From Nemertoderma westbladi (taxonomy: Eukaryota; Animalia; Xenacoelomorpha): 64,000 nucleotides of DNA. Positions 25,927 to 64,000 of the stretch are shown in pieces. The position numbers and the translations under genes are program-made. Position 1 is the stretch's first letter, and every line of letters begins with the position of its first letter. Below the pieces are notes generated by a model. The model made no database searches and was not told where the DNA came from. It saw nothing but the letters and a program-made list of their open reading frames with translations. The stretch is taken from contig JAUCBJ010003249.1 in NCBI GenBank assembly GCA_032718475.1, forward strand, positions 7,988-71,987, written 5' to 3'.

Positions 25927-25934
25927 GTTAGTCG

Positions 25935-31443: not shown

Positions 31444-31676
31444 GCCAATTATCCGTATACATCGACAAACTCCGAGAGGACTTCAACCAAGCCTCGACCG
31501 GTGGTCCCGGACAGGAGGCTAACAATGTCCCAGAGGTTGTTAACCTCATCATCTACGTACGGCAGTTGGAGGGTAAAGTTGGGGAAACATTGGGGATAGC
31601 TGAGCAGTTACTAGGCGATCTCGGCCCCTTCAAACCCTTCAGACGAAGCGCCCTTGAGCTCCAAGATGAACTGCAG
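31444..31676 (+). CDS. DYNC2H1: DYNC2H1 coding exon 7 (not in ORF track)
   Basis: TTTATTAG| (S)QLSVYIDKLREDF...NVPEVVNLIIYVRQLEGKV...ELQDELQ |GTAGGT. Confidence 0.92.
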
Positions 31677-31848: not shown

Positions 31849-32079
31849 GTTTATCGGAGAGAGCAGTTCGATATTTGGTCCAGAGAGACTCTGCAAGCCA
31901 TAGCAGACCCCGATCAGCCACTGAGTCTGCACACCAGCGGTAGACTGATGAGTCTGTCTACCAAGGACGGAAAGCTTCGGGTCTCCTACAGCGAGAGACT
32001 GGTCTCCTTACTGAGGGAGGTCCGTATACTCGTTGCTATGGGATTCCCGATTCCAGCCAAGATTACTCATACCTCGGAG
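31849..32079 (+). CDS. DYNC2H1: DYNC2H1 coding exon 8 (not in ORF track)
   Basis: CGTAG| VYRREQFDIWSRE...DGKLRVSYSERLVSLLREVR..GFPIPAKI |GTAATT. Confidence 0.93.
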
Positions 32080-32177
32080 GTAATTTTCTTCTTCTAACTC
32101 AACTGTTTTGTGAACGTCGGTGTGCTAGCTCGCTATGATTATCTTATTGCTTCGATTATTATCTTGTATTTCCCAAG

Positions 32178-32360
32178 GTTGCCCAGAAGTTTTACCGCCA
32201 TGGAATTATATTGAAGCAAGTCGCTCATTTCTACAACACAATCGATCAGCAGATGATACATAGCCAGAAACCCATGATGCTCGATGCCGCCTTAGCGTTC
32301 GAGAAAATTGTTAAGAATCCAAATACCACGAGTAAGAATGAAGGTGGTGACAAAGTACAG
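32178..32360 (+). CDS. DYNC2H1: DYNC2H1 coding exon 9 (gene continues beyond the window)
   Basis: TCCCAAG| VAQKFYRHGIILKQVAHFYNTIDQQMIHSQKPMMLDAALAFEKIVKN...GGDKVQ |GTGGGT. Similarity to recalled DYNC2H1 stops exactly here; the next expected residues are ITWDNP-like. Confidence 0.93.
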
Positions 32361-35300
32361 GTGGGTTGTATATGGAGTATCTCTATGGTGACAAAGTACA
32401 GGTGGGTTGTATATGGAGTATCTCCATGGTGACAAAGTACAGGTGGGTTGTGTATGGAGTATCTCTATGGTGACAAAGTAACGGTGGGTTGTATACGGAG
32501 TATCTCCATGGTGACAAAGTACGGGTGGGTTGTATATGGAGTATCTCTCTCTATGGTGATAAAGTACAGGTGGGTTGTGTATGGAGTATCTCTATGGTGA
32601 TAAAGTACAGGTGGGTTGTGTATGGAGTATCTCTATGGTGATAAAGTACAGGTGGGTTGTGTATGGAGTATCTCTATGGTGATAAAGTACAGGTGGGTTG
32701 TGTATGGAGTATCTCTCTCTATGGTGACAAAGTACAGGTGGGTTGTATATGGAGTATCTCTATGGTGACAAAGTACAGGTGGGTTGTGTATGGAGTATCT
32801 CTATGGTGATAAAGTACAGTGGGTTGTGTATGGAGTATCTCTATGGTGATAAAGTACAGGTGGGTTGTGTATGGAGTATCTCTATGGTGATAAAGTACAG
32901 GTGGGTTGTGTATGGAGTATCTCTATGGTGATAAAGTACAGGTGGGTTGTGTATGGAGTATCTCTATGGTGATAAAGTACAGGTGGGTTGTGTATGGAGT
33001 ATCTCTATGGTGATAAAGTACAGGTGGGTTGTGTATGGAGTATCTCTCTCTATGGTGACAAAGTACAGGTGGGTTGTATATGGAGTATCTCTATGGTGAC
33101 AAAGTACAGGTGGGTTGTGTATGGAGTATCTCTATGGTGATAAAGTACAGTGGGTTGTATATGGAGTATCTCCATGGTGATAAAGTACAGGTGGGTTGTG
33201 TATGGAGTATCTCTATGGTGACAAATTACAGGTGGGTTGTATATGGAGTATCTCCATGGTGACAAAGTACAGGTGGGTTGTGTATGGAGTATCTCTATGG
33301 TGATAAAGTACAGGTGGGTTGTGTATGGAGTATCTCTCTCTATGGTGACAAAGTACAGGTGGGTTGTATATGGAGTATCTCCATGGTGACAAAGTACAGG
33401 TGGGTTGTGTATGGAGTATCTCTATGGTGACAAAGTACAGTGGGTTGTATATGTAGTATCTCTATGGTGATAAAGTACAGGTGGGTTGTATATGGAGTAT
33501 CTCTATGGTGACAAAGTACAGGTGGGTTGTATATGGAGTATCTCTATGGTGACAAAGTACAGGTGGGTTGTATATGGAGTATCTCCATGGTGACAAAGTA
33601 CAGGTGGGTTGTGTATGGAGTATCTCTATGGTGACAAAGTACAGTGGGTTGTATATGGAGTATCTCTATGGTGATAAAGTACAGGTGGGTTGTGTATGGA
33701 GTATCTCCATGGTGACAAAGTACAGGTGGGTTGTATATGGAGTATCTCTATGGTGATAAAGTACAGGTGGGTTGTGTATGGAGTATCTCTATGGTGACAA
33801 AGTACAGGTGGGTTGTATATGGAGTATCTCTCTCTATGGTGACAAAGTACAGGTGGGTTGTATATGGAGTATCTCTCTCTATGGTGACAAAGTACAGGTG
33901 GGTTGTATATGGAGTATCTCTATGGTGATAAAGTACAGTGGGTTGTATATGGAGTATCTCTATGGTGACAAAGTACAGGTGGGTTGTGTATGGAGTATCT
34001 CCATGGTGACAAAGTACAGGTGGGTTGTGTATGGAGTATCTCTATGGTGACAAAGTACAGGTGGGTTGTATATGGAGTATCTCTATGGTGATAAAGTACA
34101 GGTGGGTTGTGTATGGAGTATCTCTCTCTATGGTGACAAAGTACAGGTGGGTTGTATATGGAGTATCTCTCTCTATGGTGACAAAGTACAGGTGGGTTGT
34201 ATATGGAGTATCTCTATGGTGATAAAGTACAGTGGGTTGTATATGGAGTATCTCTATGGTGACAAAGTACAGGTGGGTTGTATATGGAGTATCTCTCTCT
34301 ATGGTGACAAAGTACAGTGGGTTGTATATGGAGTATCTCTATGGTGACAAAGTACAGGTGGGTTGTATATGGAGTATCTCTATGGTGACAAAGTACAGTG
34401 GGTTGTATATGGAGTATCTCTATGGTGACAAAGTACAGGTGGGTTGTATATGGAGTATCTCTCTCTATGGTGACAAAGTACAGTGGGTTGTATATGGAGT
34501 ATCTCTATGGTGACAAAGTACAGGTGGGTTGTATATGGAGTATCTCTCTCTATGGTGACAAAGTACAGTGGGTTGTATATGGAGTATCTCTATGGTGACA
34601 AAGTACAGGTGGGTTGTATATGGAGTATCTCTCTCTATGGTGACAAAGTACAGTGGGTTGTATATGGAGTATCTCTATGGTGACAAAGTACAGGTGGGTT
34701 GTATATGGAGTATCTCTATGGTGACAAAGTACAGTGGGTTGTATATGGAGTATCTCTATGGTGACAAAGTACAGGTGGGTTGTATATGGAGTATCTCTCT
34801 CTATGGTGACAAAGTACAGTGGGTTGTATATGGAGTATCTCTATGGTGACAAAGTACAGGTGGGTTGTATATGGAGTATCTCTATGGTGATAAAGTACAG
34901 TGGGTTGTATATGGAGTATCTCTATGGTGACAAAGTACAGGTGGGTTGTATATGGAGTATCTCTCTCTATGGTGACAAAGTACAGTGGGTTGTATATGGA
35001 GTATCTCTATGGTGACAAAGTACAGGTGGGTTGTATATGGAGTATCTCTATGGTGATAAAGTACAGTGGGTTGTATATGGAGTATCTCTATGGTGACAAA
35101 GTACAGTGGGTTGTATATGGAGTATCTCTATGGTGATAAAGTACAGGTGGGTTGTGTATGGAGTATCTCTATGGTGACAAAGTACAGGTGGGTTGTATAT
35201 GGAGTATCTCTATGGTGATAAAGTACAGGTGGGTTGTATATGGAGTATCTCTATGGTGATAAAGTACAGTGGGTTGTATATGGAGTATCTCTATGGTGAC

Positions 35301-38300
35301 AAAGTACAGGTGGGTTGTATATGGAGTATCTCTATGGTGATAAAGTACAGGTGGGTTGTGTATGGAGTATCTCCATGGTGACAAAGTACAGGTGGGTTGT
35401 ATATGGAGTATCTCTATGGTGATAAAGTACAGGTGGGTTGTGTATGGAGTATCTCTATGGTGACAAAGTACAGGTGGGTTGTATATGGAGTATCTCTATG
35501 GTGATAAAGTACAGGTGGGTTGTATATGGAGTATCTCTATGGTGATAAAGTACAGTGGGTTGTATATGGAGTATCTCTATGGTGACAAAGTACAGTGGGT
35601 TGTATATGGAGTATCTCTATGGTGATAAAGTACAGGTGGGTTGTGTATGGAGTATCTCTATGGTGATAAAGTACAGTGGGTTGTATATGGAGTATCTCTA
35701 TGGTGATAAAGTACAGTGGGTTGTATATGGAGTATCTCTATGGTGACAAAGTACAGGTGGGTTGTATATGGAGTATCTCCATGGTGACAAAGTACAGGTG
35801 GGTTGTATATGGAGTATCTCTATGGTGATAAAGTACAGGTGGGTTGTGTATGGAGTATCTCTATGGTGATAAAGTACAGTGGGTTGTGTATGGAGTATCT
35901 CTATGGTGATAAAGTACAGTGGGTTGTATATGGAGTATCTCTATGGTGATAAAGTACAGGTGGGTTGTGTATGGAGTATCTCTATGGTGATAAAGTACAG
36001 TGGGTTGTGTATGGAGTATCTCTATGGTGATAAAGTACAGGTGGGTTGTGTATGGAGTATCTCTATGGTGATAAAGTACAGTGGGTTGTATATGGAGTAT
36101 CTCTATGGTGATAAAGTACAGTGGGTTGTATATGGAGTATCTCTATGGTGATAAAGTACAGGTGGGTTGTGTATGGAGTATCTCTATGGTGACAAAGTAC
36201 AGGTGGGTTGTATATGGAGTATCTCTATGGTGATAAAGTACAGTGGGTTGTATATGGAGTATCTCTATGGTGACAAAGTACAGGTGGGTTGTATATGGAG
36301 TATCTCTATGGTGATAAAGTACAGGTGGGTTGTGTATGGAGTATCTCTATGGTGATAAAGTACAGGTGGGTTGTATATGGAGTATCTCTATGGTGATAAA
36401 GTACAGTGGGTTGTATATGGAGTATCTCTATGGTGATAAAGTACAGTGGGTTGTATATGGAGTATCTCTATGGTGATAAAGTACAGTGGGTTGTATATGG
36501 AGTATCTCTATGGTGATAAAGTACAGTGGGTTGTATATGGAGTATCTCTATGGTGATAAAGTACAGTGGGTTGTATATGGAGTATCTCTATGGTGATAAA
36601 GTACAGGTGGGTTGTGTATGGAGTATCTCTATGGTGATAAAGTACAGTGGGTTGTATATGGAGTATCTCTATGGTGATAAAGTACAGGTGGGTTGTGTAT
36701 GGAGTATCTCTATGGTGATAAAGTACAGTGGGTTGTATATGGAGTATCTCTATGGTGATAAAGTACAGTGGGTTGTATATGGAGTATCTCTATGGTGATA
36801 AAGTACAGGTGGGTTGTGTATGGAGTATCTCTATGGTGATAAAGTACAGTGGGTTGTATATGGAGTATCTCTATGGTGATAAAGTACAGGTGGGTTGTGT
36901 ATGGAGTATCTCTATGGTGATAAAGTACAGTGGGTTGTATATGGAGTATCTCTATGGTGATAAAGTACAGGTGGGTTGTGTATGGAGTATCTCTATGGTG
37001 ATAAAGTACAGTGGGTTGTATATGGAGTATCTCTATGGTGATAAAGTACAGTGGGTTGTATATGGAGTATCTCTATGGTGATAAAGTACAGGTGGGTTGT
37101 GTATGGAGTATCTCTATGGTGATAAAGTACAGGTGGGTTGTGTATGGAGTATCTCTATGGTGACAAAGTACAGGTGGGTTGTATATGGAGTATCTCTATG
37201 GTGACAAAGTACAGTGGGTTGTGTATGGAGTATCTCTATGGTGATAAAGTACAGTGGGTTGTATATGGAGTATCTCTATGGTGATAAAGTACAGTGGGTT
37301 GTATATGGAGTATCTCTATGGTGATAAAGTACAGGTGGGTTGTATATGGAGTATCTCTATGGTGATAAAGTACAGGTGGGTTGTGTATGGAGTATCTCTA
37401 TGGTGATAAAGTACAGTGGGTTGTATATGGAGTATCTCTATGGTGATAAAGTACAGGTGGGTTGTATATGGAGTATCTCTATGGTGATAAAGTACAGGTG
37501 GGTTGTATATGGAGTATCTCTATGGTGACAAAGTACAGGTGGGTTGTATATGGAGTATCTCTATGGTGATAAAGTACAGGTGGGTTGTGTATGGAGTATC
37601 TCTATGGTGATAAAGTACAGGTGGGTTGTGTATGGAGTATCTCTATGGTGATAAAGTACAGTGGGTTGTGTATGGAGTATCTCTATGGTGATAAAGTACA
37701 GGTGGGTTGTGTATGGAGTATCTCTATGGTGATAAAGTACAGTGGGTTGTATATGGAGTATCTCTATGGTGACAAAGTACAGGTGGGTTGTATATGGAGT
37801 ATCTCTATGGTGATAAAGTACAGGTGGGTTGTGTATGGAGTATCTCTATGGTGATAAAGTACAGGTGGGTTGTGTATGGAGTATCTCTATGGTGATAAAG
37901 TACAGGTGGGTTGTGTATGGAGTATCTCTATGGTGATAAAGTACAGGTGGGTTGTATATGGAGTATCTCCATGGTGACAAAGTACAGGTGGGTTGTGTAT
38001 GGAGTATCTCTATGGTGATAAAGTACAGGTGGGTTGTGTATGGAGTATCTCTCTCTATGGTGACAAAGTACAGGTGGGTTGTATATGGAGTATCTCCATG
38101 GTGACAAAGTACAGGTGGGTTGTATATGGAGTATCTCTCTCTATGGTGACAAAGTACAGGTGGGTTGTATATGGAGTATCTCTATGGTGATAAAGTACAG
38201 GTGGGTTGTGTATGGAGTATCTCTCTCTATGGTGACAAAGTACAGGTGGGTTGTATATGGAGTATCTCCATGGTGACAAAGTACAGGTGGGTTGTGTATG

Positions 38301-41300
38301 GAGTATCTCTATGGTGACAAAGTACAGTGGGTTGTATATGGAGTATCTCTCTCTATGGTGACAAAGTACAGGTGGGTTGTATATGGAGTATCTCTCTCTA
38401 TGGTGACAAAGTACAGGTGGGTTGTATATGGAGTATCTCTATGGTGACAAAGTACAGGTGGGTTGTATATGGAGTATCTCTCTCTATGGTGACAAAGTAC
38501 AGGTGGGTTGTATATGGAGTATCTCTCTCTATGGTGACAAAGTACAGGTGGGTTGTATATGGAGTATCTCTATGGTGATAAAGTACAGGTGGGTTGTGTA
38601 TGGAGTATCTCTATGGTGACAAAGTACAGTGGGTTGTATATGGAGTATCTCTATGGTGACAAAGTACAGGTGGGTTGTATATGGAGTATCTCTATGGTGA
38701 TAAAGTACAGGTGGGTTGTATATGGAGTATCTCTCTCTATGGTGACAAAGTACAGGTGGGTTGTATATGGAGTATCTCCATGGTGACAAAGTACAGGTGG
38801 GTTGTATATGGAGTATCTCTATGGTGATAAAGTACAGGTGGGTTGTATATGGAGTATCTCTATGGTGACAAAGTACAGGTGGGTTGTATATGGAGTATCT
38901 CTATGGTGATAAAGTACAGGTGGGTTGTATATGGAGTATCTCTATGGTGATAAAGTACAGGTGGGTTGTATATGGAGTATCTCTCTCTATGGTGACAAAG
39001 TACAGGTGGGTTGTATATGGAGTATCTCCATGGTGACAAAGTACAGGTGGGTTGTATATGGAGTATCTCTATGGTGACAAAGTACAGTGGGTTGTATATG
39101 TAGTATCTCTATGGTGATAAAGTACAGGTGGGTTGTATATGGAGTATCTCTATGGTGACAAAGTACAGGTGGGTTGTATATGGAGTATCTCTATGGTGAC
39201 AAAGTACAGGTGGGTTGTATATGGAGTATCTCCATGGTGACAAAGTACAGGTGGGTTGTGTATGGAGTATCTCTATGGTGACAAAGTACAGTGGGTTGTA
39301 TATGGAGTATCTCTATGGTGACAAAGTACAGGTGGGTTGTATATGGAGTATCTCTATGGTGACAAAGTACAGTGGGTTGTATATGGAGTATCTCTCTCTA
39401 TGGTGACAAAGTACGGGTGGGTTGTATATGGAGTATCTCTATGGTGACAAAGTACAGGTGGGTTGTATATGGAGTATCTCCATGGTGACAAAGTACAGGT
39501 GGGTTGTATATGGAGTATCTCTATGGTGATAAAGTACAGGTGGGTTGTATATGGAGTATCTCTATGGTGACAAAGTACAGGTGGGTTGTATATGGAGTAT
39601 CTCCATGGTGACAAAGTACAGGTGGGTTGTATATGGAGTATCTCTCTCTATGGTGACAAAGTACAGGTGGGTTGTATATGGAGTATCTCCATGGTGACAA
39701 AGTACAGGTGGGTTGTATATGGAGTATCTCTATGGTGATAAAGTACAGGTGGGTTGTATATGGAGTATCTCTATGGTGACAAAGTACAGGTGGGTTGTAT
39801 ATGGAGTATCTCCATGGTGACAAAGTACAGGTGGGTTGTGTATGGAGTATCTCTATGGTGACAAAGTACAGTGGGTTGTATATGGAGTATCTCTATGGTG
39901 ACAAAGTACAGGTGGGTTGTATATGGAGTATCTCCATGGTGACAAAGTACAGGTGGGTTGTGTATGGAGTATCTCTATGGTGACAAAGTACAGTGGGTTG
40001 TATATGGAGTATCTCTATGGTGACAAAGTACAGTGGGTTGTATATGGAGTATCTCTATGGTGACAAAGTACAGTGGGTTGTATATGGAGTATCTCTATGG
40101 TGATAAAGTACAGGTGGGTTGTATATGGAGTATCTCTATGGTGATAAAGTACAGGTGGGTTGTATATGGAGTATCTCTATGGTGACAAAGTACAGGTGGG
40201 TTGTATATGGAGTATCTCTATGGTGACAAAGTACAGTGGGTTGTGTATGGAGTATCTCTATGGTGACAAAGTACAGTGGGTTGTATATGGAGTATCTCTC
40301 TCTATGGTGACAAAGTACAGGTGGGTTGTATATGGAGTATCTCCATGGTGACAAAGTATAGGTGGGTTGTATATGGAGTATCTCTATGGTGACAAAGTAC
40401 AGTGGGTTGTATATGGAGTATCTCTCTCTATGGTGACAAAGTACAGGTGGGTTGTATATGGAGTATCTCTCTCTATGGTGACAAAGTACAGGTGGGTTGT
40501 ATATGGAGTATCTCCATGGTGACAAAGTATAGGTGGGTTGTATATGGAGTATCTCTCTCTATGGTGACAAAGTACAGGTGGGTTGTATATGGAGTATCTC
40601 CATGGTGACAAAGTACAGTGGGTTGTATATGGAGTATCTCTCTCTATGGTGACAAAGTACAGGTGGGTTGTATATGGAGTATCTCCATGGTGACAAAGTA
40701 TAGGTGGGTTGTATATGGAGTATCTCTATGGTGATAAAGTACAGGTGGGTTGTATATGGAGTATCTCTATGGTGACAAAGTACAGGTGGGTTGTATATGG
40801 AGTATCTCTATGGTGATAAAGTACAGGTGGGTTGTGTATGGAGTATCTCTATGGTGACAAAGTACAGTGGGTTGTATATGGAGTATCTCTCTCTATGGTG
40901 ACAAAGTACAGGTGGGTTGTATATGGAGTATCTCTCTCTATGGTGACAAAGTACAGGTGGGTTGTATATGGAGTATCTCCATGGTGACAAAGTACAGTGG
41001 GTTGTATATGGAGTATCTCTCTCTATGGTGACAAAGTACAGGTGGGTTGTATATGGAGTATCTCCATGGTGACAAAGTATAGGTGGGTTGTATATGGAGT
41101 ATCTCTATGGTGATAAAGTACAGGTGGGTTGTATATGGAGTATCTCTATGGTGACAAAGTACAGGTGGGTTGTATATGGAGTATCTCTATGGTGATAAAG
41201 TACAGGTGGGTTGTATATGGAGTATCTCTATGGTGATAAAGTACAGGTGGGTTGTATATGGAGTATCTCTATGGTGACAAAGTACAGTGGGTTGTATATG

Positions 41301-44300
41301 TAGTATCTCTATGGTGATAAAGTACAGGTGGGTTGTATATGGAGTATCTCTATGGTGACAAAGTACAGGTGGGTTGTATATGGAGTATCTCTATGGTGAC
41401 AAAGTACAGGTGGGTTGTATATGGAGTATCTCCATGGTGACAAAGTACAGGTGGGTTGTGTATGGAGTATCTCTATGGTGACAAAGTACAGTGGGTTGTA
41501 TATGGAGTATCTCTATGGTGATAAAGTACAGGTGGGTTGTGTATGGAGTATCTCCATGGTGACAAAGTACAGGTGGGTTGTATATGGAGTATCTCTATGG
41601 TGATAAAGTACAGGTGGGTTGTGTATGGAGTATCTCTATGGTGACAAAGTACAGGTGGGTTGTATATGGAGTATCTCTCTCTATGGTGACAAAGTACAGG
41701 TGGGTTGTATATGGAGTATCTCTCTCTATGGTGACAAAGTACAGGTGGGTTGTATATGGAGTATCTCTATGGTGATAAAGTACAGTGGGTTGTATATGGA
41801 GTATCTCTATGGTGACAAAGTACAGGTGGGTTGTATATGGAGTATCTCTATGGTGACAAAGTACAGGTGGGTTGTATATGGAGTATCTCTATGGTGATAA
41901 AGTACAGGTGGGTTGTGTATGGAGTATCTCTATGGTGATAAAGTACAGGTGGGTTGTGTATGGAGTATCTCCTATGGTGACAAAGTACAGGTGGGTTGTA
42001 TATGGAGTATCTCTATGGTGATAAAGTACAGGTGGGTTGTGTATGGAGTATCTCTATGGTGACAAAGTACAGGTGGGTTGTATATGGAGTATCTCTCTCT
42101 ATGGTGACAAAGTACAGGTGGGTTGTATATGGAGTATCTCTCTCTATGGTGACAAAGTACAGGTGGGTTGTATATGGAGTATCTCTCTATGGTGACAAAG
42201 TACAGGTGGGTTGTATATGGAGTATCTCTCTATGGTGACAAAGTACAGGTGGGTTGTGTATGGAGTATCTCTATGGTGATAAAGTACAGGTGGGTTGTGT
42301 ATGGAGTATCTCCTATGGTGACAAAGTACAGGTGGGTTGTATATGGAGTATCTCTATGGTGATAAAGTACAGGTGGGTTGTGTATGGAGTATCTCTATGG
42401 TGACAAAGTACAGGTGGGTTGTATATGGAGTATCTCTCTCTATGGTGACAAAGTACAGGTGGGTTGTATATGGAGTATCTCTCTCTATGGTGACAAAGTA
42501 CAGTGGGTTGTATATGGAGTATCTCTATGGTGATAAAGTACAGTGGGTTGTATATGGAGTATCTCTATGGTGACAAAGTACAGGTGGGTTGTATATGGAG
42601 TATCTCTATGGTGACAAAGTACAGGTGGGTTGTATATGGAGTATCTCTATGGTGACAAAGTACAGGTGGGTTGTATATGGAGTATCTCTATGGTGACAAA
42701 GTACAGGTGGGTTGTATATGGAGTATCTCTATGGTGATAAAGTACAGTGGGTTGTATATGGAGTATCTCTATGGTGACAAAGTACAGGTGGGTTGTATAT
42801 GGAGTATCTCTATGGTGACAAAGTACAGGTGGGTTGTATATGGAGTATCTCTATGGTGACAAAGTACAGGTGGGTTGTATATGGAGTATCTCTATGGTGA
42901 TAAAGTACAGGTGGGTTGTGTATGGAGTATCTCTATGGTGACAAAGTACAGGTGGGTTGTGTATGGAGTATCTCTATGGTGACAAAGTACAGGTGGGTTG
43001 TATATGGAGTATCTCTATGGTGATAAAGTACAGGTGGGTTGTGTATGGAGTATCTCTATGGTGACAAAGTACAGGTGGGTTGTATATGGAGTATCTCTAT
43101 GGTGATAAAGTACAGGTGGGTTGTGTATGGAGTATCTCTATGGTGATAAAGTACAGGTGGGTTGTATATGGAGTATCTCTATGGTGACAAAGTACAGGTG
43201 GGTTGTATATGGAGTATCTCTATGGTGACAAAGTACAGGTGGGTTGTGTATGGAGTATCTCTATGGTGATAAAGTACAGGTGGGTTGTATATGGAGTATC
43301 TCTATGGTGATAAAGTACAGGTGGGTTGTATATGGAGTATCTCTATGGTGACAAAGTACAGGTGGGTTGTATATGGAGTATCTCTATGGTGATAAAGTAC
43401 AGGTGGGTTGTATATGGAGTATCTCTATGGTGATAAAGTACAGTGGGTTGTATATGGAGTATCTCTATGGTGATAAAGTACAGGTGGGTTGTATATGGAG
43501 TATCTCTATGGTGACAAAGTACAGTGGGTTGTATATGGAGTATCTCTATGGTGATAAAGTACAGGTGGGTTGTATATGGAGTATCTCTATGGTGATAAAG
43601 TACAGGTGGGTTGTATATGGAGTATCTCTATGGTGACAAAGTACAGTGGGTTGTATATGGAGTATCTCTATGGTGACAAAGTACAGGTGGGTTGTATATG
43701 GAGTATCTCTATGGTGACAAAGTACAGGTGGGTTGTATATGGAGTATCTCTATGGTGACAAAGTACAGGTGGGTTGTGTATGGAGTATCTCTATGGTGAT
43801 AAAGTACAGTGGGTTGTATATGGAGTATCTCTATGGTGACAAAGTACAGGTGGGTTGTATATGGAGTATCTCTATGGTGACAAAGTACAGGTGGGTTGTA
43901 TATGGAGTATCTCTATGGTGACAAAGTACAGGTGGGTTGTGTATGGAGTATCTCTATGGTGACAAAGTACAGTGGGTTGTATATGGAGTATCTCTATGGT
44001 GACAAAGTACAGGTGGGTTGTATATGGAGTATCTCTATGGTGACAAAGTACAGGTGGGTTGTGTATGGAGTATCTCTATGGTGATAAAGTACAGGTGGGT
44101 TGTATATGGAGTATCTCTATGGTGACAAAGTACAGGTGGGTTGTGTATGGAGTATCTCTATGGTGACAAAGTACAGGTGGGTTGTATATGGAGTATCTCT
44201 ATGGTGACAAAGTACAGGTGGGTTGTATATGGAGTATCTCTATGGTGACAAAGTACAGGTGGGTTGTATATGGAGTATCTCTATGGTGACAAAGTACAGG

Positions 44301-50300: not shown

Positions 50301-53300
50301 GGTTGTGTATGGAGTATCTCTCTCTATGGTGACAAAGTACAGTGGGTTGTATATGGAGTATCTCTATGGTGACAAAGTACAGGTGGGTTGTGTATGGAGT
50401 ACTCTCTCTATGGTGACAAAGTACAGGTGGGTTGTATATGGAGTATCTCTATGGTGACAAAGTACAGGTGGGTTGTGTATGGAGTATCTCTCTCTATGGT
50501 GACAAAGTACAGGTGGGTTGTATATGGAGTATCTCTATGGTGACAAAGTACAGGTGGGTTGTGTATGGAGTATCTCTCTCTATGGTGACAAAGTACAGGT
50601 GGGTTGTATATGGAGTATCTCTATGGTGACAAAGTACAGGTGGGTTGTATATGGAGTATCTCTATGGTGACAAAGTACAGGTGGGTTGTATATGGAGTAT
50701 CTCTATGGTGACAAAGTACAGGTGGGTTGTGTATGGAGTATCTCTCTCTATGGTGACAAAGTACAGTGGGTTGTATATGGAGTATCTCTATGGTGACAAA
50801 GTACAGGTGGGTTGTATATGGAGTATCTCTATGGTGACAAAGTACAGGTGGGTTGTATATGGAGTATCTCTATGGTGACAAAGTACAGGTGGGTTGTATA
50901 TGGAGTATCTCTATGGTGACAAAGTACAGTGGGTTGTATATGGAGTATCTCTATGGTGACAAAGTACAGGTGGGTTGTATATGGAGTATCTCTATGGTGA
51001 CAAAGTACAGGTGGGTTGTATATGGAGTATCTCTATGGTGACAAAGTACAGGTGGGTTGTATATGGAGTATCTCTATGGTGATAAAGTACAGTGGGTTGT
51101 ATATGGAGTATCTCTCTCTATGGTGACAAAGTACAGGTGGGTTGTGTATGGAGTATCTCTATGGTGACAAAGTACAGGTGGGTTGTATATGGAGTATCTC
51201 TCTATGGTGACAAAGTACAGGTGGGTTGTGTATGGAGTATCTCTATGGTGATAAAGTACAGTGGGTTGTATATGGAGTATCTCTATGGTGACAAAGTACA
51301 GTGGGTTGTATATGGAGTATCTCTATGGTGACAAAGTACAGGTGGGTTGTATATGGAGTATCTCTCTCTATGGTGACAAAGTACAGGTGGGTTGTGTATG
51401 GAGTATCTCTATGGTGACAAAGTACAGGTGGGTTGTATATGGAGTATCTCTATGGTGACAAAGTACAGGTGGGTTGTGTATGGAGTATCTCTCTCTATGG
51501 TGACAAAGTACAGGTGGGTTGTGTATGGAGTATCTCTATGGTGACAAAGTACAGGTGGGTTGTATATGGAGTATCTCTATGGTGACAAAGTACAGGTGGG
51601 TTGTGTATGGAGTATCTCTATGGTGATAAAGTACAGGTGGGTTGTGTATGGAGTATCTCTATGGTGACAAAGTACAGGTGGGTTGTATATGGAGTATCTC
51701 TCTCTATGGTGACAAAGTACAGGTGGGTTGTGTATGGAGTATCTCTATGGTGATAAAGTACAGTGGGTTGTATATGGAGTATCTCTATGGTGACAAAGTA
51801 CAGGTGGGTTGTATATGGAGTATCTCTCTCTATGGTGACAAAGTACAGGTGGGTTGTGTATGGAGTATCTCTATGGTGACAAAGTACAGGTGGGTTGTAT
51901 ATGGAGTATCTCTATGGTGACAAAGTACAGGTGGGTTGTGTATGGAGTATCTCTATGGTGATAAAGTACAGGTGGGTTGTGTATGGAGTATCTCTATGGT
52001 GACAAAGTACAGGTGGGTTGTATATGGAGTATCTCCTCTATGGTGACAAAGTACAGGTGGGTTGTGTATGGAGTATCTCTATGGTGATAAAGTACAGGTG
52101 GGTTGTGTATGGAGTATCTCTATGGTGACAAAGTACAGTGGGTTGTATATGGAGTATCTCTATGGTGACAAAGTACAGGTGGGTTGTGTATGGAGTATCT
52201 CTATGGTGATAAAGTACAGTGGGTTGTATATGGAGTATCTCTATGGTGACAAAGTACAGGTGGGTTGTGTATGGAGTATCTCTATGGTGACAAAGTACAG
52301 GTGGGTTGTATATGGAGTATCTCTATGGTGACAAAGTACAGGTGGGTTGTGTATGGAGTATCTCTCTCTATGGTGACAAAGTACAGGTGGGTTGTGTATG
52401 GAGTATCTCTATGGTGACAAAGTACAGGTGGGTTGTATATGGAGTATCTCTATGGTGACAAAGTACAGGTGGGTTGTGTATGGAGTATCTCTATGGTGAT
52501 AAAGTACAGGTGGGTTGTGTATGGAGTATCTCTATGGTGACAAAGTACAGGTGGGTTGTATATGGAGTATCTCTCTCTATGGTGACAAAGTACAGTGGGT
52601 TGTATATGGAGTATCTCTATGGTGATAAAGTACAGGTGGGTTGTATATGGAGTATCTCTATGGTGACAAAGTACAGGTGGGTTGTGTATGGAGTATCTCT
52701 ATGGTGATAAAGTACAGTGGGTTGTATATGGAGTATCTCTATGGTGATAAAGTACAGGTGGGTTGTATATGGAGTATCTCTATGGTGACAAAGTACAGGT
52801 GGGTTGTATATGGAGTATCTCCATGGTGACAAAGTACAGGTGGGTTGTATATGGAGTATCTCCATGGTGACAAAGTACAGGTGGGTTGTATATGGAGTAT
52901 CTCTATGGTGATAAAGTACAGTGGGTTGTATATGGAGTATCTCTATGGTGATAAAGTACAGGTGGGTTGTATATGGAGTATCTCTATGGTGACAAAGTAC
53001 AGGTGGGTTGTATATGGAGTATCTCCATGGTGACAAAGTACAGGTGGGTTGTGTATGGAGTATCTCTATGGTGATAAAGTACAGTGGGTTGTATATGGAG
53101 TATCTCTATGGTGACAAAGTACAGGTGGGTTGTATATGGAGTATCTCTATGGTGACAAAGTACAGGTGGGTTGTATATGGAGTATCTCCATGGTGACAAA
53201 GTACAGGTGGGTTGTATATGGAGTATCTCTATGGTGACAAAGTACAGTGGGTTGTATATGGAGTATCTCTATGGTGACAAAGTACAGGTGGGTTGTATAT

Positions 53301-56300
53301 GGAGTATCTCCATGGTGACAAAGTACAGGTGGGTTGTATATGGAGTATCTCTATGGTGACAAAGTACAGGTGGGTTGTATATGGAGTATCTCTCTCTATG
53401 GTGACAAAGTACAGGTGGGTTGTATATGGAGTATCTCCATGGTGACAAAGTACAGGTGGGTTGTATATGGAGTATCTCCATGGTGACAAAGTACAGGTGG
53501 GTTGTATATGGAGTATCTCTATGGTGACAAAGTACAGTGGGTTGTATATGGAGTATCTCCATGGTGACAAAGTACAGGTGGGTTGTATATGGAGTATCTC
53601 CATGGTGACAAAGTACAGGTGGGTTGTATATGGAGTATCTCCATGGTGACAAAGTACAGGTGGGTTGTATATGGAGTATCTCTATGGTGACAAAGTACAG
53701 TGGGTTGTATATGGAGTATCTCTATGGTGACAAAGTACAGGTGGGTTGTATATGGAGTATCTCCATGGTGACAAAGTACAGGTGGGTTGTATATGGAGTA
53801 TCTCTATGGTGACAAAGTACAGGTGGGTTGTATATGGAGTATCTCTCTCTATGGTGACAAAGTACAGGTGGGTTGTATATGGAGTATCTCCATGGTGACA
53901 AAGTACAGGTGGGTTGTATATGGAGTATCTCCATGGTGACAAAGTACAGGTGGGTTGTATATGGAGTATCTCTATGGTGACAAAGTACAGGTGGGTTGTA
54001 TATGGAGTATCTCTCTCTATGGTGACAAAGTACAGGTGGGTTGTATATGGAGTATCTCTATGGTGATAAAGTACAGTGGGTTGTATATGGAGTATCTCTA
54101 TGGTGACAAAGTACAGGTGGGTTGTATATGGAGTATCTCCATGGTGACAAAGTACAGGTGGGTTGTATATGGAGTATCTCTATGGTGACAAAGTACAGTG
54201 GGTTGTATATGGAGTATCTCTATGGTGACAAAGTACAGTGGGTTGTGTATGGAGTATCTCTATGGTGATAAAGTACAGTGGGTTGTGTATGGAGTATCTC
54301 TATGGTGACAAAGTACAGTGGGTTGTGTATGGAGTATCTCTATGGTGACAAAGTACAGTGGGTTGTGTATGGAGTATCTCTATGGTGACAAAGTACAGTG
54401 GGTTGTATATGGAGTATCTCTATGGTGACAAAGTACAGTGGGTTGTGTATGGAGTATCTCTATGGTGACAAAGTACAGTGGGTTGTGTATGGAGTATCTC
54501 TATGGTGACAAAGTACAGTGGGTTGTATATGGAGTATCTCTATGGTGACAAAGTACAGTGGGTTGTGTATGGAGTATCTCTATGGTGACAAAGTACAGTG
54601 GGTTGTGTATGGAGTATCTCTATGGTGACAAAGTACAGTGGGTTGTGTATGGAGTATCTCTATGGTGACAAAGTACAGTGGGTTGTGTATGGAGTATCTC
54701 TATGGTGACAAAGTACAGTGGGTTGTGTATGGAGTATCTCTATGGTGACAAAGTACAGTGGGTTGTGTATGGAGTATCTCTATGGTGACAAAGTACAGTG
54801 GGTTGTGTATGGAGTATCTCTATGGTGACAAAGTACAGTGGGTTGTGTATGGAGTATCTCTATGGTGACAAAGTACAGGTGGGTTGTGTATGGAGTATCT
54901 CTATGGTGACAAAGTACAGGTGGGTTGTATATGGAGTATCTCCATGGTGACAAAGTACAGGTGGGTTGTATATGGAGTATCTCTATGGTGACAAAGTACA
55001 GTGGGTTGTATATGGAGTATCTCTATGGTGACAAAGTACAGTGGGTTGTGTATGGAGTATCTCTATGGTGACAAAGTACAGTGGGTTGTGTATGGAGTAT
55101 CTCTATGGTGACAAAGTACAGTGGGTTGTGTATGGAGTATCTCTATGGTGACAAAGTACAGTGGGTTGTGTATGGAGTATCTCTATGGTGACAAAGTACA
55201 GTGGGTTGTGTATGGAGTATCTCTATGGTGACAAAGTACAGTGGGTTGTGTATGGAGTATCTCTATGGTGACAAAGTACAGTGGGTTGTGTATGGAGTAT
55301 CTCTATGGTGACAAAGTACAGTGGGTTGTGTATGGAGTATCTCTATGGTGACAAAGTACAGTGGGTTGTGTATGGAGTATCTCTATGGTGACAAAGTACA
55401 GTGGGTTGTGTATGGAGTATCTCTATGGTGACAAAGTACAGTGGGTTGTGTATGGAGTATCTCTATGGTGACAAAGTACAGGTGGGTTGTGTATGGAGTA
55501 TCTCTATGGTGACAAAGTACAGGTGGGTTGTATATGGAGTATCTCCATGGTGACAAAGTACAGGTGGGTTGTATATGGAGTATCTCTATGGTGACAAAGT
55601 ACAGTGGGTTGTGTATGGAGTATCTCTATGGTGACAAAGTACAGTGGGTTGTGTATGGAGTATCTCTATGGTGACAAAGTACAGTGGGTTGTGTATGGAG
55701 TATCTCTATGGTGACAAAGTACAGTGGGTTGTGTATGGAGTATCTCTATGGTGACAAAGTACAGTGGGTTGTGTATGGAGTATCTCTATGGTGACAAAGT
55801 ACAGGTGGGTTGTGTATGGAGTATCTCTATGGTGACAAAGTACAGGTGGGTTGTATATGGAGTATCTCCATGGTGACAAAGTACAGGTGGGTTGTATATG
55901 GAGTATCTCTATGGTGACAAAGTACAGTGGGTTGTGTATGGAGTATCTCTATGGTGACAAAGTACAGTGGGTTGTGTATGGAGTATCTCTATGGTGACAA
56001 AGTACAGTGGGTTGTGTATGGAGTATCTCTATGGTGACAAAGTACAGTGGGTTGTGTATGGAGTATCTCTATGGTGACAAAGTACAGGTGGGTTGTGTAT
56101 GGAGTATCTCTATGGTGATAAAGTACAGTGGGTTGTATATGGAGTATCTCTATGGTGACAAAGTACAGGTGGGTTGTATATGGAGTATCTCTATGGTGAC
56201 AAAGTACAGGTGGGTTGTATATGGAGTATCTCTATGGTGACAAAGTACAGTGGGTTGTATATGGAGTATCTCTATGGTGACAAAGTACAGGTGGGTTGTG

Positions 56301-59300
56301 TATGGAGTATCTCTATGGTGACAAAGTACAGTGGGTTGTGTATGGAGTATCTCTATGGTGATAAAGTACAGTGGGTTGTATATGGAGTATCTCTATGGTG
56401 ACAAAGTACAGGTGGGTTGTATATGGAGTATCTCCATGGTGACAAAGTACAGGTGGGTTGTATATGGAGTATCTCCATGGTGACAAAGTACAGGTGGGTT
56501 GTATATGGAGTATCTCCATGGTGACAAAGTACAGGTGGGTTGTATATGGAGTATCTCTATGGTGACAAAGTACAGTGGGTTGTATATGGAGTATCTCTAT
56601 GGTGACAAAGTACAGGTGGGTTGTATATGGAGTATCTCTATGGTGACAAAGTACAGGTGGGTTGTATATGGAGTATCTCTCTCTATGGTGACAAAGTACA
56701 GGTGGGTTGTATATGGAGTATCTCTATGGTGATAAAGTACAGGTGGGTTGTATATGGAGTATCTCTCTCTATGGTGACAAAGTACAGGTGGGTTGTATAT
56801 GGAGTATCTCCATGGTGACAAAGTACAGGTGGGTTGTATATGGAGTATCTCTATGGTGACAAAGTACAGTGGGTTGTATATGGAGTATCTCTATGGTGAC
56901 AAAGTACAGGTGGGTTGTATATGGAGTATCTCTCTATGGTGACAAAGTACAGGTGGGTTGTATATGGAGTATCTCTATGGTGATAAAGTACAGTGGGTTG
57001 TATATGGAGTATCTCTATGGTGACAAAGTACAGGTGGGTTGTATATGGAGTATCTCCATGGTGACAAAGTACAGGTGGGTTGTATATGGAGTATCTCCAT
57101 GGTGACAAAGTACAGGTGGGTTGTATATGGAGTATCTCCATGGTGACAAAGTACAGGTGGGTTGTATATGGAGTATCTCTATGGTGACAAAGTACAGGTG
57201 GGTTGTATATGGAGTATCTCTATGGTGACAAAGTACAGGTGGGTTGTATATGGAGTATCTCTATGGTGACAAAGTACAGGTGGGTTGTATATGGAGTATC
57301 TCTCATGGTGACAAAGTACAGGTGGGTTGTATATGGAGTATCTCTATGGTGATAAAGTACAGGTGGGTTGTATATGGAGTATCTCTCTCTATGGTGACAA
57401 AGTACAGGTGGGTTGTATATGGAGTATCTCCATGGTGACAAAGTACAGGTGGGTTGTATATGGAGTATCTCTATGGTGACAAAGTACAGTGGGTTGTATA
57501 TGGAGTATCTCTATGGTGACAAAGTACAGGTGGGTTGTATATGGAGTATCTCTCTATGGTGACAAAGTACAGGTGGGTTGTATATGGAGTATCTCTATGG
57601 TGATAAAGTACAGTGGGTTGTATATGGAGTATCTCTATGGTGACAAAGTACAGGTGGGTTGTATATGGAGTATCTCCATGGTGACAAAGTACAGGTGGGT
57701 TGTATATGGAGTATCTCTATGGTGATAAAGTACAGTGGGTTGTATATGGAGTATCTCTATGGTGACAAAGTACAGGTGGGTTGTATATGGAGTATCTCCA
57801 TGGTGACAAAGTACAGGTGGGTTGTATATGGAGTATCTCTATGGTGACAAAGTACAGTGGGTTGTATATGGAGTATCTCTATGGTGACAAAGTACAGTGG
57901 GTTGTATATGGAGTATCTCTATGGTGATAAAGTACAGTGGGTTGTATATGGAGTATCTCTATGGTGACAAAGTACAGGTGGGTTGTATATGGAGTATCTC
58001 TATGGTGACAAAGTACAGGTGGGTTGTATATGGAGTATCTCTATGGTGACAAAGTACAGTGGGTTGTATATGGAGTATCTCTATGGTGACAAAGTACAGT
58101 GGGTTGTATATGGAGTATCTCTATGGTGACAAAGTACAGTGGGTTGTATATGGAGTATCTCTATGGTGACAAAGTACAGTGGGTTGTATATGGAGTATCT
58201 CTATGGTGACAAAGTACAGGTGGGTTGTATATGGAGTATCTCTATGGTGACAAAGTACAGGTGGGTTGTATATGGAGTATCTCTATGGTGACAAAGTACA
58301 GTGGGTTGTATATGGAGTATCTCTATGGTGACAAAGTACAGGTGGGTTGTATATGGAGTATCTCTATGGTGACAAAGTACAGTGGGTTGTATATGGAGTA
58401 TCTCTATGGTGACAAAGTACAGGTGGGTTGTATATGGAGTATCTCTATGGTGATAAAGTACAGTGGGTTGTATATGGAGTATCTCTATGGTGACAAAGTA
58501 CAGGTGGGTTGTATATGGAGTATCTCTATGGTGACAAAGTACAGGTGGGTTGTATATGGAGTATCTCTATGGTGACAAAGTACAGTGGGTTGTATATGGA
58601 GTATCTCTATGGTGATAAAGTACAGGTGGGTTGTATATGGAGTATCTCTATGGTGACAAAGTACAGTGGGTTGTATATGGAGTATCTCTATGGTGACAAA
58701 GTACAGGTGGGTTGTATATGGAGTATCTCTATGGTGACAAAGTACAGGTGGGTTGTATATGGAGTATCTCTATGGTGATAAAGTACAGTGGGTTGTATAT
58801 GGAGTATCTCTATGGTGACAAAGTACAGGTGGGTTGTATATGGAGTATCTCTATGGTGACAAAGTACAGGTGGGTTGTATATGGAGTATCTCTATGGTGA
58901 TAAAGTACAGTGGGTTGTATATGGAGTATCTCTATGGTGACAAAGTACAGGTGGGTTGTATATGGAGTATCTCTATGGTGACAAAGTACAGGTGGGTTGT
59001 ATATGGAGTATCTCTATGGTGACAAAGTACAGGTGGGTTGTATATGGAGTATCTCTATGGTGATAAAGTACAGTGGGTTGTATATGGAGTATCTCTATGG
59101 TGACAAAGTACAGGTGGGTTGTATATGGAGTATCTCTATGGTGACAAAGTACAGGTGGGTTGTATATGGAGTATCTCTATGGTGATAAAGTACAGTGGGT
59201 TGTATATGGAGTATCTCTATGGTGACAAAGTACAGGTGGGTTGTATATGGAGTATCTCTATGGTGACAAAGTACAGGTGGGTTGTATATGGAGTATCTCT

Positions 59301-62300
59301 ATGGTGACAAAGTACAGGTGGGTTGTATATGGAGTATCTCTATGGTGATAAAGTACAGTGGGTTGTATATGGAGTATCTCTATGGTGACAAAGTACAGGT
59401 GGGTTGTATATGGAGTATCTCTATGGTGACAAAGTACAGGTGGGTTGTATATGGAGTATCTCTATGGTGATAAAGTACAGTGGGTTGTATATGGAGTATC
59501 TCTATGGTGACAAAGTACAGGTGGGTTGTATATGGAGTATCTCTATGGTGACAAAGTACAGGTGGGTTGTATATGGAGTATCTCTATGGTGATAAAGTAC
59601 AGTGGGTTGTATATGGAGTATCTCTATGGTGACAAAGTACAGGTGGGTTGTATATGGAGTATCTCTATGGTGACAAAGTACAGGTGGGTTGTATATGGAG
59701 TATCTCTATGGTGACAAAGTACAGGTGGGTTGTATATGGAGTATCTCTATGGTGATAAAGTACAGTGGGTTGTATATGGAGTATCTCTATGGTGACAAAG
59801 TACAGGTGGGTTGTATATGGAGTATCTCTATGGTGACAAAGTACAGGTGGGTTGTATATGGAGTATCTCTATGGTGACAAAGTACAGGTGGGTTGTATAT
59901 GGAGTATCTCTATGGTGATAAAGTACAGGTGGGTTGTATATGGAGTATCTCTATGGTGACAAAGTACAGTGGGTTGTATATGGAGTATCTCTATGGTGAC
60001 AAAGTACAGGTGGGTTGTATATGGAGTATCTCTATGGTGACAAAGTACAGGTGGGTTGTATATGGAGTATCTCTATGGTGACAAAGTACAGGTGGGTTGT
60101 ATATGGAGTATCTCTATGGTGACAAAGTACAGTGGGTTGTATATGGAGTATCTCTATGGTGACAAAGTACAGGTGGGTTGTATATGGAGTATCTCTCTAT
60201 GGTGACAAAGTACAGTGGGTTGTATATGGAGTACTCTCTCTATGGTGATAAAGTACAGTGGGTTGTATATGGAGTATCTCTATGGTGACAAAGTACAGGT
60301 GGGTTGTATATGGAGTATCTCCATGGTGACAAAGTACAGGTGGGTTGTATATGGAGTATCTCTATGGTGATAAAGTACAGTGGGTTGTATATGGAGTATC
60401 TCTCTCTATGGTGATAAAGTACAGTGGGTTGTATATGGAGTATCTCTATGGTGACAAAGTACAGGTGGGTTGTATATGGAGTATCTCCATGGTGACAAAG
60501 TACAGGTGGGTTGTATATGGAGTATCTCCATGGTGACAAAGTACAGGTGGGTTGTATATGGAGTATCTCTATGGTGATAAAGTACAGTGGGTTGTATATG
60601 GAGTATCTCTATGGTGATAAAGTACAGTGGGTTGTATATGGAGTATCTCTATGGTGACAAAGTACAGGTGGGTTGTATATGGAGTATCTCCATGGTGACA
60701 AAGTACAGGTGGGTTGTATATGGAGTATCTCTATGGTGATAAAGTACAGTGGGTTGTATATGGAGTATCTCTATGGTGACAAAGTACAGGTGGGTTGTAT
60801 ATGGAGTATCTCCATGGTGACAAAGTACAGGTGGGTTGTATATGGAGTATCTCTATGGTGACAAAGTACAGGTGGGTTGTATATGGAGTATCTCTATGGT
60901 GATAAAGTACAGTGGGTTGTATATGGAGTATCTCTATGGTGACAAAGTACAGGTGGGTTGTATATGGAGTATCTCCATGGTGACAAAGTACAGGTGGGTT
61001 GTATATGGAGTATCTCTATGGTGATAAAGTACAGTGGGTTGTATATGGAGTATCTCTATGGTGACAAAGTACAGGTGGGTTGTGTATGGAGTATCTCTCT
61101 CTATGGTGACAAAGTACAGGTGGGTTGTATATGGAGTATCTCTATGGTGACAAAGTACAGTGGGTTGTATATGGAGTATCTCTATGGTGACAAAGTACAG
61201 TGGGTTGTGTATGGAGTATCTCTATGGTGACAAAGTACAGGTGGGTTGTATATGGAGTATCTCTATGGTGACAAAGTACAGTGGGTTGTATATGGAGTAT
61301 CTCTATGGTGACAAAGTACAGGTGGGTTGTATATGGAGTATCTCTATGGTGACAAAGTACAGGTGGGTTGTATATGGAGTATCTCTATGGTGACAAAGTA
61401 CAGTGGGTTGTGTATGGAGTATCTCTATGGTGACAAAGTACAGGTGGGTTGTATATGGAGTATCTCTATGGTGACAAAGTACAGTGGGTTGTATATGGAG
61501 TATCTCTATGGTGACAAAGTACAGTGGGTTGTGTATGGAGTATCTCTCTCTATGGTGACAAAGTACAGGTGGGTTGTATATGGAGTATCTCTATGGTGAC
61601 AAAGTACAGTGGGTTGTATATGGAGTATCTCTATGGTGACAAAGTACAGTGGGTTGTGTATGGAGTATCTCTCTCTATGGTGACAAAGTACAGGTGGGTT
61701 GTATATGGAGTATCTCTATGGTGACAAAGTACAGTGGGTTGTATATGGAGTATCTCTATGGTGACAAAGTACAGGTGGGTTGTATATGGAGTATCTCTAT
61801 GGTGACAAAGTACAGGTGGGTTGTATATGGAGTATCTCTATGGTGACAAAGTACAGTGGGTTGTATATGGAGTATCTCTATGGTGACAAAGTACAGGTGG
61901 GTTGTATATGGAGTATCTCTATGGTGACAAAGTACAGTGGGTTGTATATGGAGTATCTCTATGGTGATAAAGTACAGTGGGTTGTATATGGAGTATCTCT
62001 ATGGTGACAAAGTACAGGTGGGTTGTATATGGAGTATCTCTCTCTATGGTGACAAAGTACAGGTGGGTTGTATATGGAGTATCTCTATGGTGACAAAGTA
62101 CAGGTGGGTTGTGTATGGAGTATCTCTATGGTGATAAAGTACAGTGGGTTGTATATGGAGTATCTCTCTCTATGGTGACAAAGTACAGGTGGGTTGTATA
62201 TGGAGTATCTCTATGGTGATAAAGTACAGTGGGTTGTATATGGAGTATCTCTATGGTGATAAAGTACAGGTGGGTTGTGTATGGAGTATCTCTATGGTGA

Positions 62301-64000
62301 TAAAGTACAGTGGGTTGTATATGGAGTATCTCTATGGTGACAAAGTACAGGTGGGTTGTATATGGAGTATCTCTATGGTGACAAAGTACAGGTGGGTTGT
62401 ATATGGAGTATCTCTATGGTGACAAAGTACAGGTGGGTTGTATATGGAGTATCTCTATGGTGACAAAGTACAGTGGGTTGTATATGGAGTATCTCTATGG
62501 TGACAAAGTACAGGTGGGTTGTATATGGAGTATCTCTATGGTGACAAAGTACAGTGGGTTGTATATGGAGTATCTCTCTCTATGGTGACAAAGTACAGGT
62601 GGGTTGTATATGGAGTATCTCTATGGTGACAAAGTACAGTGGGTTGTATATGGAGTATCTCTCTCTATGGTGACAAAGTACAGGTGGGTTGTATATGGAG
62701 TATCTCTATGGTGACAAAGTACAGTGGGTTGTATATGGAGTATCTCTCTCTATGGTGACAAAGTACAGGTGGGTTGTATATGGAGTATCTCTATGGTGAT
62801 AAAGTACAGTGGGTTGTATATGGAGTATCTCTATGGTGACAAAGTACAGTGGGTTGTATATGGAGTATCTCTATGGTGACAAAGTACAGTGGGTTGTATA
62901 TGGAGTATCTCTATGGTGACAAAGTACAGTGGGTTGTATATGGAGTATCTCTCTCTATGGTGACAAAGTACAGGTGGGTTGTATATGGAGTATCTCTATG
63001 GTGACAAAGTACAGGTGGGTTGTATATGGAGTATCTCTATGGTGACAAAGTACAGTGGGTTGTATATGGAGTATCTCTCTCTATGGTGACAAAGTACAGG
63101 TGGGTTGTATATGGAGTATCTCTATGGTGACAAAGTACAGGTGGGTTGTATATGGAGTATCTCTATGGTGACAAAGTACAGGTGGGTTGTGTATGGAGTA
63201 TCTCTATGGTGACAAAGTACAGGTGGGTTGTGTATGGAGTATCTCTATGGTGATAAAGTACAGTGGGTTGTATATGGAGTATCTCTATGGTGATAAAGTA
63301 CAGGTGGGTTGTATATGGAGTATCTCTATGGTGACAAAGTACAGGTGGGTTGTATATGGAGTATCTCCATGGTGATAAAGTACAGGTGGGTTGTGTATGG
63401 AGTATCTCTATGGTGACAAATTACAGGTGGGTTGTGTATGGAGTATCTCTATGGTGATAAAGTACAGGTGGGTTGTATATGGAGTATCTCCATGGTGATA
63501 AAGTACAGGTGGGTTGTGTATGGAGTATCTCTATGGTGACAAATTACAGGTGGGTTGTGTATGGAGTATCTCTATGGTGATAAAGTACAGGTGGGTTGTG
63601 TATGGAGTATCTCTATGGTGACAAAGTACAGGTGGGTTGTATATGGAGTATCTCTATGGTGATAAAGTACAGGTGGGTTGTATATGGAGTATCTCTATGG
63701 TGATAAAGTACAGGTGGGTTGTGTATGGAGTATCTCTATGGTGATAAATTACAGGTGGGTTGTGTATGGAGTATCTCTATGGTGATAAAGTACAGTGGGT
63801 TGTATATGGAGTATCTCTATGGTGATAAAGTACAGGTGGGTTGTGTATGGAGTATCTCTATGGTGATAAATTACAGGTGGGTTGTGTATGGAGTATCTCT
63901 ATGGTGATAAAGTACAGGTGGGTTGTATATGGAGTATCTCTATGGTGACAAAGTACAGGTGGGTTGTATATGGAGTATCTCTATGGTGACAAAGTACAGG
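32345..64000 (+). repeat. 41-bp satellite (TGGTGACAAAGTACAG|GTGGGTTGTATATGGAGTATCTCTA), about 770 copies, intron 9 of DYNC2H1, incomplete at window end
   Basis: Directly visible. 40-bp (one G lost), 43-bp and 45-bp (extra CT) length variants, plus gac/gat, tat/tgt and ctat/ccat substitutions. The first copy overlaps exon 9. Confidence 0.99.

Follow-up and report, generated by a model that had tools for sequence, protein, structure and literature searches.

A 41-bp satellite reiterating the exon 9/intron 9 junction of DYNC2H1 in Nemertoderma westbladi

How is one 5' splice site (donor) chosen when hundreds of near-identical copies follow it in the same intron? The question is raised by a stretch of 64,000 nucleotides (nt) from Nemertoderma westbladi (assembly GCA_032718475.1, contig JAUCBJ010003249.1, positions 7,988 to 71,987 of the forward strand), referred to below as the window. 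It carries nine exons of DYNC2H1, the gene for the cytoplasmic dynein 2 heavy chain, and a tandem array of a 41-bp unit that starts 16 nt inside exon 9 and continues through intron 9 to the end of the window. The junction 41-mer appears to have been amplified in tandem to 767 copies or more (over 31.6 kb), and by analogy with published cases the first, authentic donor is probably the one that is used. An earlier note, made from the letters of the window alone, had described the array and asked the same question of it; its claims are taken up below where the results bear on them.

Gene structure and the end of exon 9

The open reading frame (ORF) piece at 32172-32360 matched human DYNC2H1 (cytoplasmic dynein 2 heavy chain, chain 6rla_A) with an E value of 1.6e-17, and it matched 19 longer proteins, several of them named DYNC2H1 by their source. 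The best match to a fragment so named came from a bivalve (73%), and the best identities to exon 9 in the protein collection, 84 to 86%, covered part of the exon only; no protein or transcript of the same species was found there. The upstream exon piece, exon 8, matched the Pfam family DHC_N1. Using tblastn with three orthologues (P0002, P0007, and P0012), nine collinear open exons were mapped on the + strand from an ATG at 17504, each piece being 37 to 73% identical to the orthologues, so that the label exon 9 is fair and the assignment of the gene to DYNC2H1 in the earlier note held. Splice sites were read directly for exons 5 to 9; the bounds of exons 1 to 5 are approximate and unrefined, except for the donor of exon 5. 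The parts of the gene are as follows, with a slash marking the cut.

Approx. 17504-17662, 18115-18345, 19925-20080, 21706-21927, and 24713-25034, + strand: DYNC2H1 exons 1 to 5, from tblastn; exon-5 donor TTG/GTGAGT
25690..25926, + strand: exon 6, from tblastn; donor TGA/GTTAGT, phase fitting the exon-7 acceptor
31444..31676, + strand: exon 7, from tblastn and boundaries; donor CAG/GTAGGT
31849..32079, + strand: exon 8, from the DHC_N1 match, tblastn, and boundaries; donor GAG/GTAATT
32178..32360, + strand: exon 9, 183 nt, 61 codons, VAQKFYRHG...NEGGDKVQ, from the human match, orthologue alignment, and tblastn; acceptor CCCAAG/G at 32177/32178
32358..32366, + strand: authentic intron-9 donor CAG/GTGGGT, cut at 32360/32361, the sole GT where the homology ends

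After the aligned ...VQ, 14 of the 19 orthologues read (I/V)-TW(D/E/G), and the other five stop or diverge. At this point GGDKVQ gives way to gtgggt in the window, and the translation past it, VGCIWSIS..., is unlike the orthologues. Among 15 ORFs of exon size from other animals, three likewise continued after ...VQ with V and then unrelated residues, as would be expected of a GT-intron at the same place in those animals. On these alignments the donor at 32360/32361 is well supported as the end of exon 9, in line with the earlier placement of the junction in the first copy of the repeat. Of the six acceptors scored, that of exon 9 was the richest in pyrimidines (fraction 0.75), and the exon-9 donor, one of eight that were read, has CAG as the last exonic bases, G at +5, and T at +6.

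Structure and composition of the array

The 41-bp array was detected in the 64-kb window by Tandem Repeats Finder (TRF) with period 41, 766.4 copies, 94% matches, and 3% indels, and cutting it at the first six bases of the monomer gave 767 units. The last of these is a 17-nt partial unit (63984-64000), with which the array leaves the window in sense orientation. Since the window ends inside the array, the counts of at least 767 copies and more than 31.6 kb are lower bounds, and both exon 10 and the array's 3' end lie beyond 64000.

32345..64000, + strand: 41-bp tandem array, 767 units, cut by the window end, from TRF, segmentation, and a variant map
32345..32385, + strand: copy 1 of the 41-bp unit, comprising the last 16 nt of exon 9 and the first 25 nt of intron 9

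The array is in register with the exon: copy 1 bridges the end of exon 9 and the start of intron 9 and has exactly the sequence of the most frequent monomer, which accounts for 250 of the 767 units. Both the extent of the array (more than 31 kb from 32345, in sense, past 64000) and the equation of its monomer with the junction had been claimed from the letters and were recovered by TRF and segmentation. The 766 spacings between units were 41 nt (455 cases), 40 nt (189), 45 nt (80), 44 nt (24), 43 nt (12), and 42 nt (6). A total of 42 distinct monomers was obtained, clustered in local higher-order patches, and the longest exact repeat inside the array was only 606 bp. The sense strand of the array contains 9956 G versus 3173 C, and neither AATAAA nor ATTAAA occurs in it.

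The donor 9-mer CAGGTGGGT (CAG/GTGGGT) was present in 552 of the 767 units. A further 207 units carried the one-G-deleted form ACAGTGGGT, in which GTGGGT is kept and the G at -1 is lost, and the remaining eight comprised four units with TAG/GT, two with CGG/GT, one with ACG/GT, and the partial unit. The 22-mer made of the 16 exonic nt plus GTGGGT occurred 445 times exactly and 102 times in a synonymous GAT variant. Later copies thus repeat the context of the junction, as had been noted; of the "about 770 near-identical competitors" counted at that time, the near-identity of the decoys stands, and the number is slightly generous given the 207 units without the G at -1. Among the first ten units, the most diverged were units 4 and 5 (32468-32553, + strand), with donors changed at -2/-3 (ACG/GT and CGG/GT); divergence of edge copies is usual in satellites. 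Units 2 and 3, the decoys closest to the authentic donor, retain an intact CAG/GTGGGT.

Monomer-like sequence was absent from both strands of 1-32344 (no hit to a 25-mer with up to 5 mismatches, a 16-mer with up to 2, or the 41-mer with up to 9), which points to a local origin of the array. The monomer had no exact match in the metagenome contig collection. An array of spliced-leader (SL) RNA genes was rejected as an identity for the repeat on grounds of size, a 41-bp unit being too short for an SL RNA gene.

Consequences of the repeated donors

The features that determine the products of decoy use lie within the first units downstream of the authentic donor.

32399..32407, + strand: decoy donor 2, CAG/GTGGGT, cut at 32401/32402; use adds 41 nt
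32430..32432, + strand: in-frame TGA of the read-through frame, from translation
32440..32448, + strand: decoy donor 3, CAG/GTGGGT; use adds 82 nt including the stop

Use of donor 2 would cause a frameshift because 41 is not a multiple of 3 (41 mod 3 = 2), and all donors after donor 2 would include the in-frame TGA; the arithmetic in the earlier note was correct. Masking of the decoys by RNA structure was considered and rejected. No masking structure was predicted for six units, which folded at z = -1.21 relative to shuffled sequences, and donor 1 was no more accessible than donors 2 to 6 (mean unpaired probability 0.33 versus 0.33 to 0.55).

Second satellite in intron 6 and other features of the window

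A second satellite was found in the same gene.

25927..31077, + strand: 28-bp unit, also in 36-bp variants, occupying intron 6 from the first base on (TRF 25969-31077, 177 copies)

Of the first 34 nt of intron 6, 30 agree in register with the 36-bp variant unit, and the satellite is therefore taken to begin at 25927 and not at 25969 as in TRF. It ends 366 nt before the exon-7 acceptor and contains 363 GTTAGT hexamers, identical to the hexamer of the intron's own, unusual donor TGA/GTTAGT. Two introns of DYNC2H1 hence carry satellites that start at the donor, and both are G-over-C skewed on the sense (non-template) strand, the GC skew being about +0.98 to +1.0 for the 28-bp satellite and about +0.5 for the 41-bp one. 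In intron 3, a short ORF (21369-21638, + strand) gave a weak RVT_1 match below the Pfam cut-off (24.8 versus 29.6 bits) and is probably a decayed retroelement fragment.

Four neighboring genes are single uninterrupted ORFs, beside which DYNC2H1 has many introns; the four may be intron-poor genes or retrocopies.

163-1995, - strand: mucolipin-type channel, 610 amino acids, MCLN_ECD and PKD_channel; best database relatives about 40% identical, mostly vertebrate
4538-5392, - strand: DTW-domain protein
9101-9775, + strand: protein with two U11-48K-type CHHC zinc fingers
11419-12627, + strand: Rad51-family paralogue

Other repeats comprised three tandem arrays and one duplication, and a search of 1-34000 against Rfam returned no family.

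2844-4001: 18-bp array, 64 copies
10959-11115: perfect 78-bp duplication inside an ORF with a weak DUF6451 match
15173-15555: 32-bp array, 12 copies, 98% identity
15679-15995: 11-bp array, 29 copies

Comparison with known intronic repeats

Minisatellites whose first monomer spans an exon-intron boundary were described by Borensztajn et al. in 2006 (PMC1557585). In intron 7 of human F7, the repeat has a 37-bp unit (4 exonic and 33 intronic nt) in 5 to 9 copies with the donor UGG/gugggu. Experiments showed that splicing takes the upstream-most of these identical donors and no other, and the pseudo-sites become functional once the upstream sites are mutated. Neither a masking structure nor an autonomous element was found, and the authors propose 5'-to-3' scanning aided by exon definition. 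Similar repeats are listed for IFI6 (6-16) intron 2 with 25 pseudo-sites, CBS intron 13 with 15 to 20 repeats, LMNB2 with 10 to 15 copies of 100 bp, and PDGF intron 4 with 16 to 18 copies of 81 bp. For IFI6 and CBS, splicing takes place at the first three sites, the authentic one and the two pseudo-sites after it (PMC1557585), and donors 2 and 3 of DYNC2H1 are accordingly predicted to see minor use.

The three architectural features of this class were found in DYNC2H1. A head-to-tail sense array of period 41 lies in the intron directly after the exon (32345-64000), its first monomer holds the last exonic and first intronic nt (16 and 25), and the donor is reiterated identically in most units together with its exonic context, as the 9-mer and 22-mer counts given above show. 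The likeness to F7 extends to the identical intronic hexamer gugggu, the sense orientation, the succession of an authentic donor and identical pseudo-donors at a spacing of 37 bp in F7 and 41 bp here, and the essential nature of the gene, which is probable for DYNC2H1; the predicted absence of a special RNA structure at the 41-bp array is one further point of agreement. Unlike F7, with its 5 to 9 copies, less than 0.4 kb, and 4 exonic nt per unit, the DYNC2H1 array exceeds 31.6 kb, comprises 767 copies or more, and takes 16 exonic nt into each unit; donor choice was put to the test in F7 and is argued here by analogy, and F7 is mammalian, whereas the host of this DYNC2H1 is a distant animal. 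IFI6, CBS, LMNB2, and PDGF have tens of copies at most. Compared with the published range of 5 to 26 copies, the difference is one of scale, not of architecture, and the DYNC2H1 locus is a new, far larger member of the known junction-spanning class, with about 30 to 150 times more copies. In the earlier note, the introns of Drosophila Y-linked dynein genes had been offered as the known analogy, which implies that they are the closest one and that junction copies are without precedent; both implications are contradicted by F7 and the four other genes above.

According to the earlier note, the satellites of those Drosophila introns are simple and unrelated to the splice junction. The Y-linked dynein genes kl-3 and kl-5 have gigantic satellite-filled introns, reported to be of megabase scale and tied to a spermatocyte program (PMC6508621; PMC11207136). 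They share with the present locus a dynein heavy-chain gene and a long intronic satellite that has to be transcribed through. They differ in that the DYNC2H1 unit is the junction itself and the visible satellite in intron 9 measures tens of kb (at least 31.6 kb, running off the window), against hundreds of kb to Mb for the Drosophila Y type. A parallel in the competition of identical donors for one acceptor is provided by the substrates of Hodson et al. (2012), in which two duplicated strong 5' splice sites at least 45 nt apart led to selection of the intron-proximal one (PMC3413131). Literature searches turned up no junction-spanning array of hundreds of copies, and a search on DYNC2H1 with satellite DNA and intron returned unrelated papers only.

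Competing explanations

Contigs from an independent sample (S2) bear on whether the array is real. A 951-nt contig from run X2 covers 31450-32351 and enters the unit by 7 letters, and a 328-nt contig from run X3 covers 32047-32374 with exon 8/9 sequence and 30 letters of the unit. In run X2, the words of the unit summed to 6340-13100 versus 24.8 on the unique flank (ratio about 255 to 530), and in run X3 to about 130 versus 4.4 (ratio about 30); these summed contig depths are rough and are not copy numbers. X1 was uncovered on the unique flank and X5 throughout, neither of which is evidence for or against the array. We take this to mean that the 41-bp unit is highly repeated in a second individual, the length of the array not being confirmed thereby. 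It is improbable that the array, its length, or its position is an assembly artefact, in which the exon was mis-joined to a satellite from elsewhere or a repeat was over-extended. The whole array is seen in one assembly, the short-read contigs of the independent sample both end at the repeat border, and their depth does not give a copy number, all of which such an artefact would accommodate. It would not explain the make-up of the array, which contains no looped block and has its 42 monomer types in local higher-order patches with no exact repeat beyond 606 bp, nor the high sums of unit words in run X2. The join falls inside a unit that is also exon, and a chance mis-join would need 16 exon nt matching the satellite. 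The end of the X3 contig at 32374 would coincide with the last 31-letter word that holds an exon-specific base and thus with a branch point of the word graph if the unit is repeated, assuming words of 31 letters. The internal make-up speaks for a real, long-read-resolved satellite, with thin independent support. About as improbable is a truncated or dead DYNC2H1 copy, cut after exon 9 by the satellite or lacking exon 10, with the working copy elsewhere. The position of exon 10 outside the window would suit it, but the nine exons are open, in order, and orthologue-like, they have usable GT donors and AG acceptors, and copy 1 retains the conserved V-Q codons and a good donor.

Recursive splice sites consist of juxtaposed 3' and 5' sites with the motif YAG/GTRRGT, which is matched by CAG/GTGGGT in the 552 units that carry it. 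If the exon-9 donor were joined to the CAG of a later unit, no matter which, an identical junction would result, that is, zero-nucleotide recursive splicing, and from this a role of the array in gene expression can be drawn. The spliceosome might remove the intron of 31 kb or more in many small junction-regenerating steps, or hundreds of U1 snRNPs might hold or time the transcript and protect the long intron, so that the array would be a working part of the gene; we consider this improbable. With tuning of output by decoys and nonsense-mediated decay added, the functional explanations taken jointly are still unlikely, if somewhat less so. They are favored by the juxtaposed 3'-like and 5' motif, by the lack of AATAAA and ATTAAA over the whole array, and by the satellite in intron 6, which carries that intron's own donor hexamer and hints at recurrence. 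Co-transcriptional splicing is moreover reported to be important for satellite-filled giant introns in Drosophila (PMC11207136). On its acceptor side, however, the unit looks poor: pyrimidines make up a fraction of 0.50 at -22..-3, compared with 0.55 to 0.75 in six genuine DYNC2H1 acceptors, and there is a competing AAAG 5 nt upstream of the unit CAG. The deletion inside the motif in 207 units does not suggest constraint, and the F7 repeat revealed no autonomous regulatory element and has silent pseudo-sites (PMC1557585).

Proposed origin and splicing of the array

Because the V-Q codons are conserved in orthologues across animals, the exon end would be older than the satellite; we infer that the end of exon 9 is ancestral and that the satellite was derived from it. 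The first step may have been a tandem duplication of 41 bp spanning the junction, with later amplification through unequal exchange or slippage. By analogy with F7, exon 9 would be defined from its strong acceptor, and exon definition or 5'-to-3' scanning would commit the first downstream donor. Donors 2 and 3, both intact, may see low-level use, as in IFI6 and CBS, with products carrying premature stops that would be degraded, and the units beyond them would be inert intron. The array itself would most likely be a by-product that is tolerated, not an adaptation.

Several points weigh against this proposal. The use of donor 1 is argued from homology and the F7 analogy, not from RNA. The F7 rule itself comes from mammalian cells and at most 9 copies and covers neither this animal nor hundreds of copies (PMC1557585), and duplicated strong donors in model pre-mRNAs gave the opposite, intron-proximal rule (PMC3413131). 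The array length is known from one assembly, none of the independent contigs reached 31 letters into the array, the length set for bridging (30 letters in run X3 and 7 in run X2), and neither exon 10 nor the array's 3' end falls within the window.

Implications

The two published rules for identical donors conflict, with the upstream-most site used in F7 (scanning or exon definition) and the intron-proximal site used in model substrates, and both were tested with few copies. With hundreds of copies in a ciliary motor gene that is conserved and probably essential, the DYNC2H1 array provides a natural setting in which they could be told apart; an intron-proximal rule would be ruinous for this gene. 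The main value of the locus is that the rules are not known to have been confronted at such a copy number. If the array is neutral, the result is a modest one, namely an extreme case within a class of repeats that was already described in the 1990s to 2000s. If instead the array were a working part of the gene, copy number would set DYNC2H1 output and the satellite in intron 6 would belong to the same design. With the end of exon 9 inside a recombining satellite, movement of a G-deleted unit (one of the 207) to the first position by unequal exchange would be expected to damage the gene, and the DYNC2H1 array may thus represent a standing mutational hazard that could be sought in populations.

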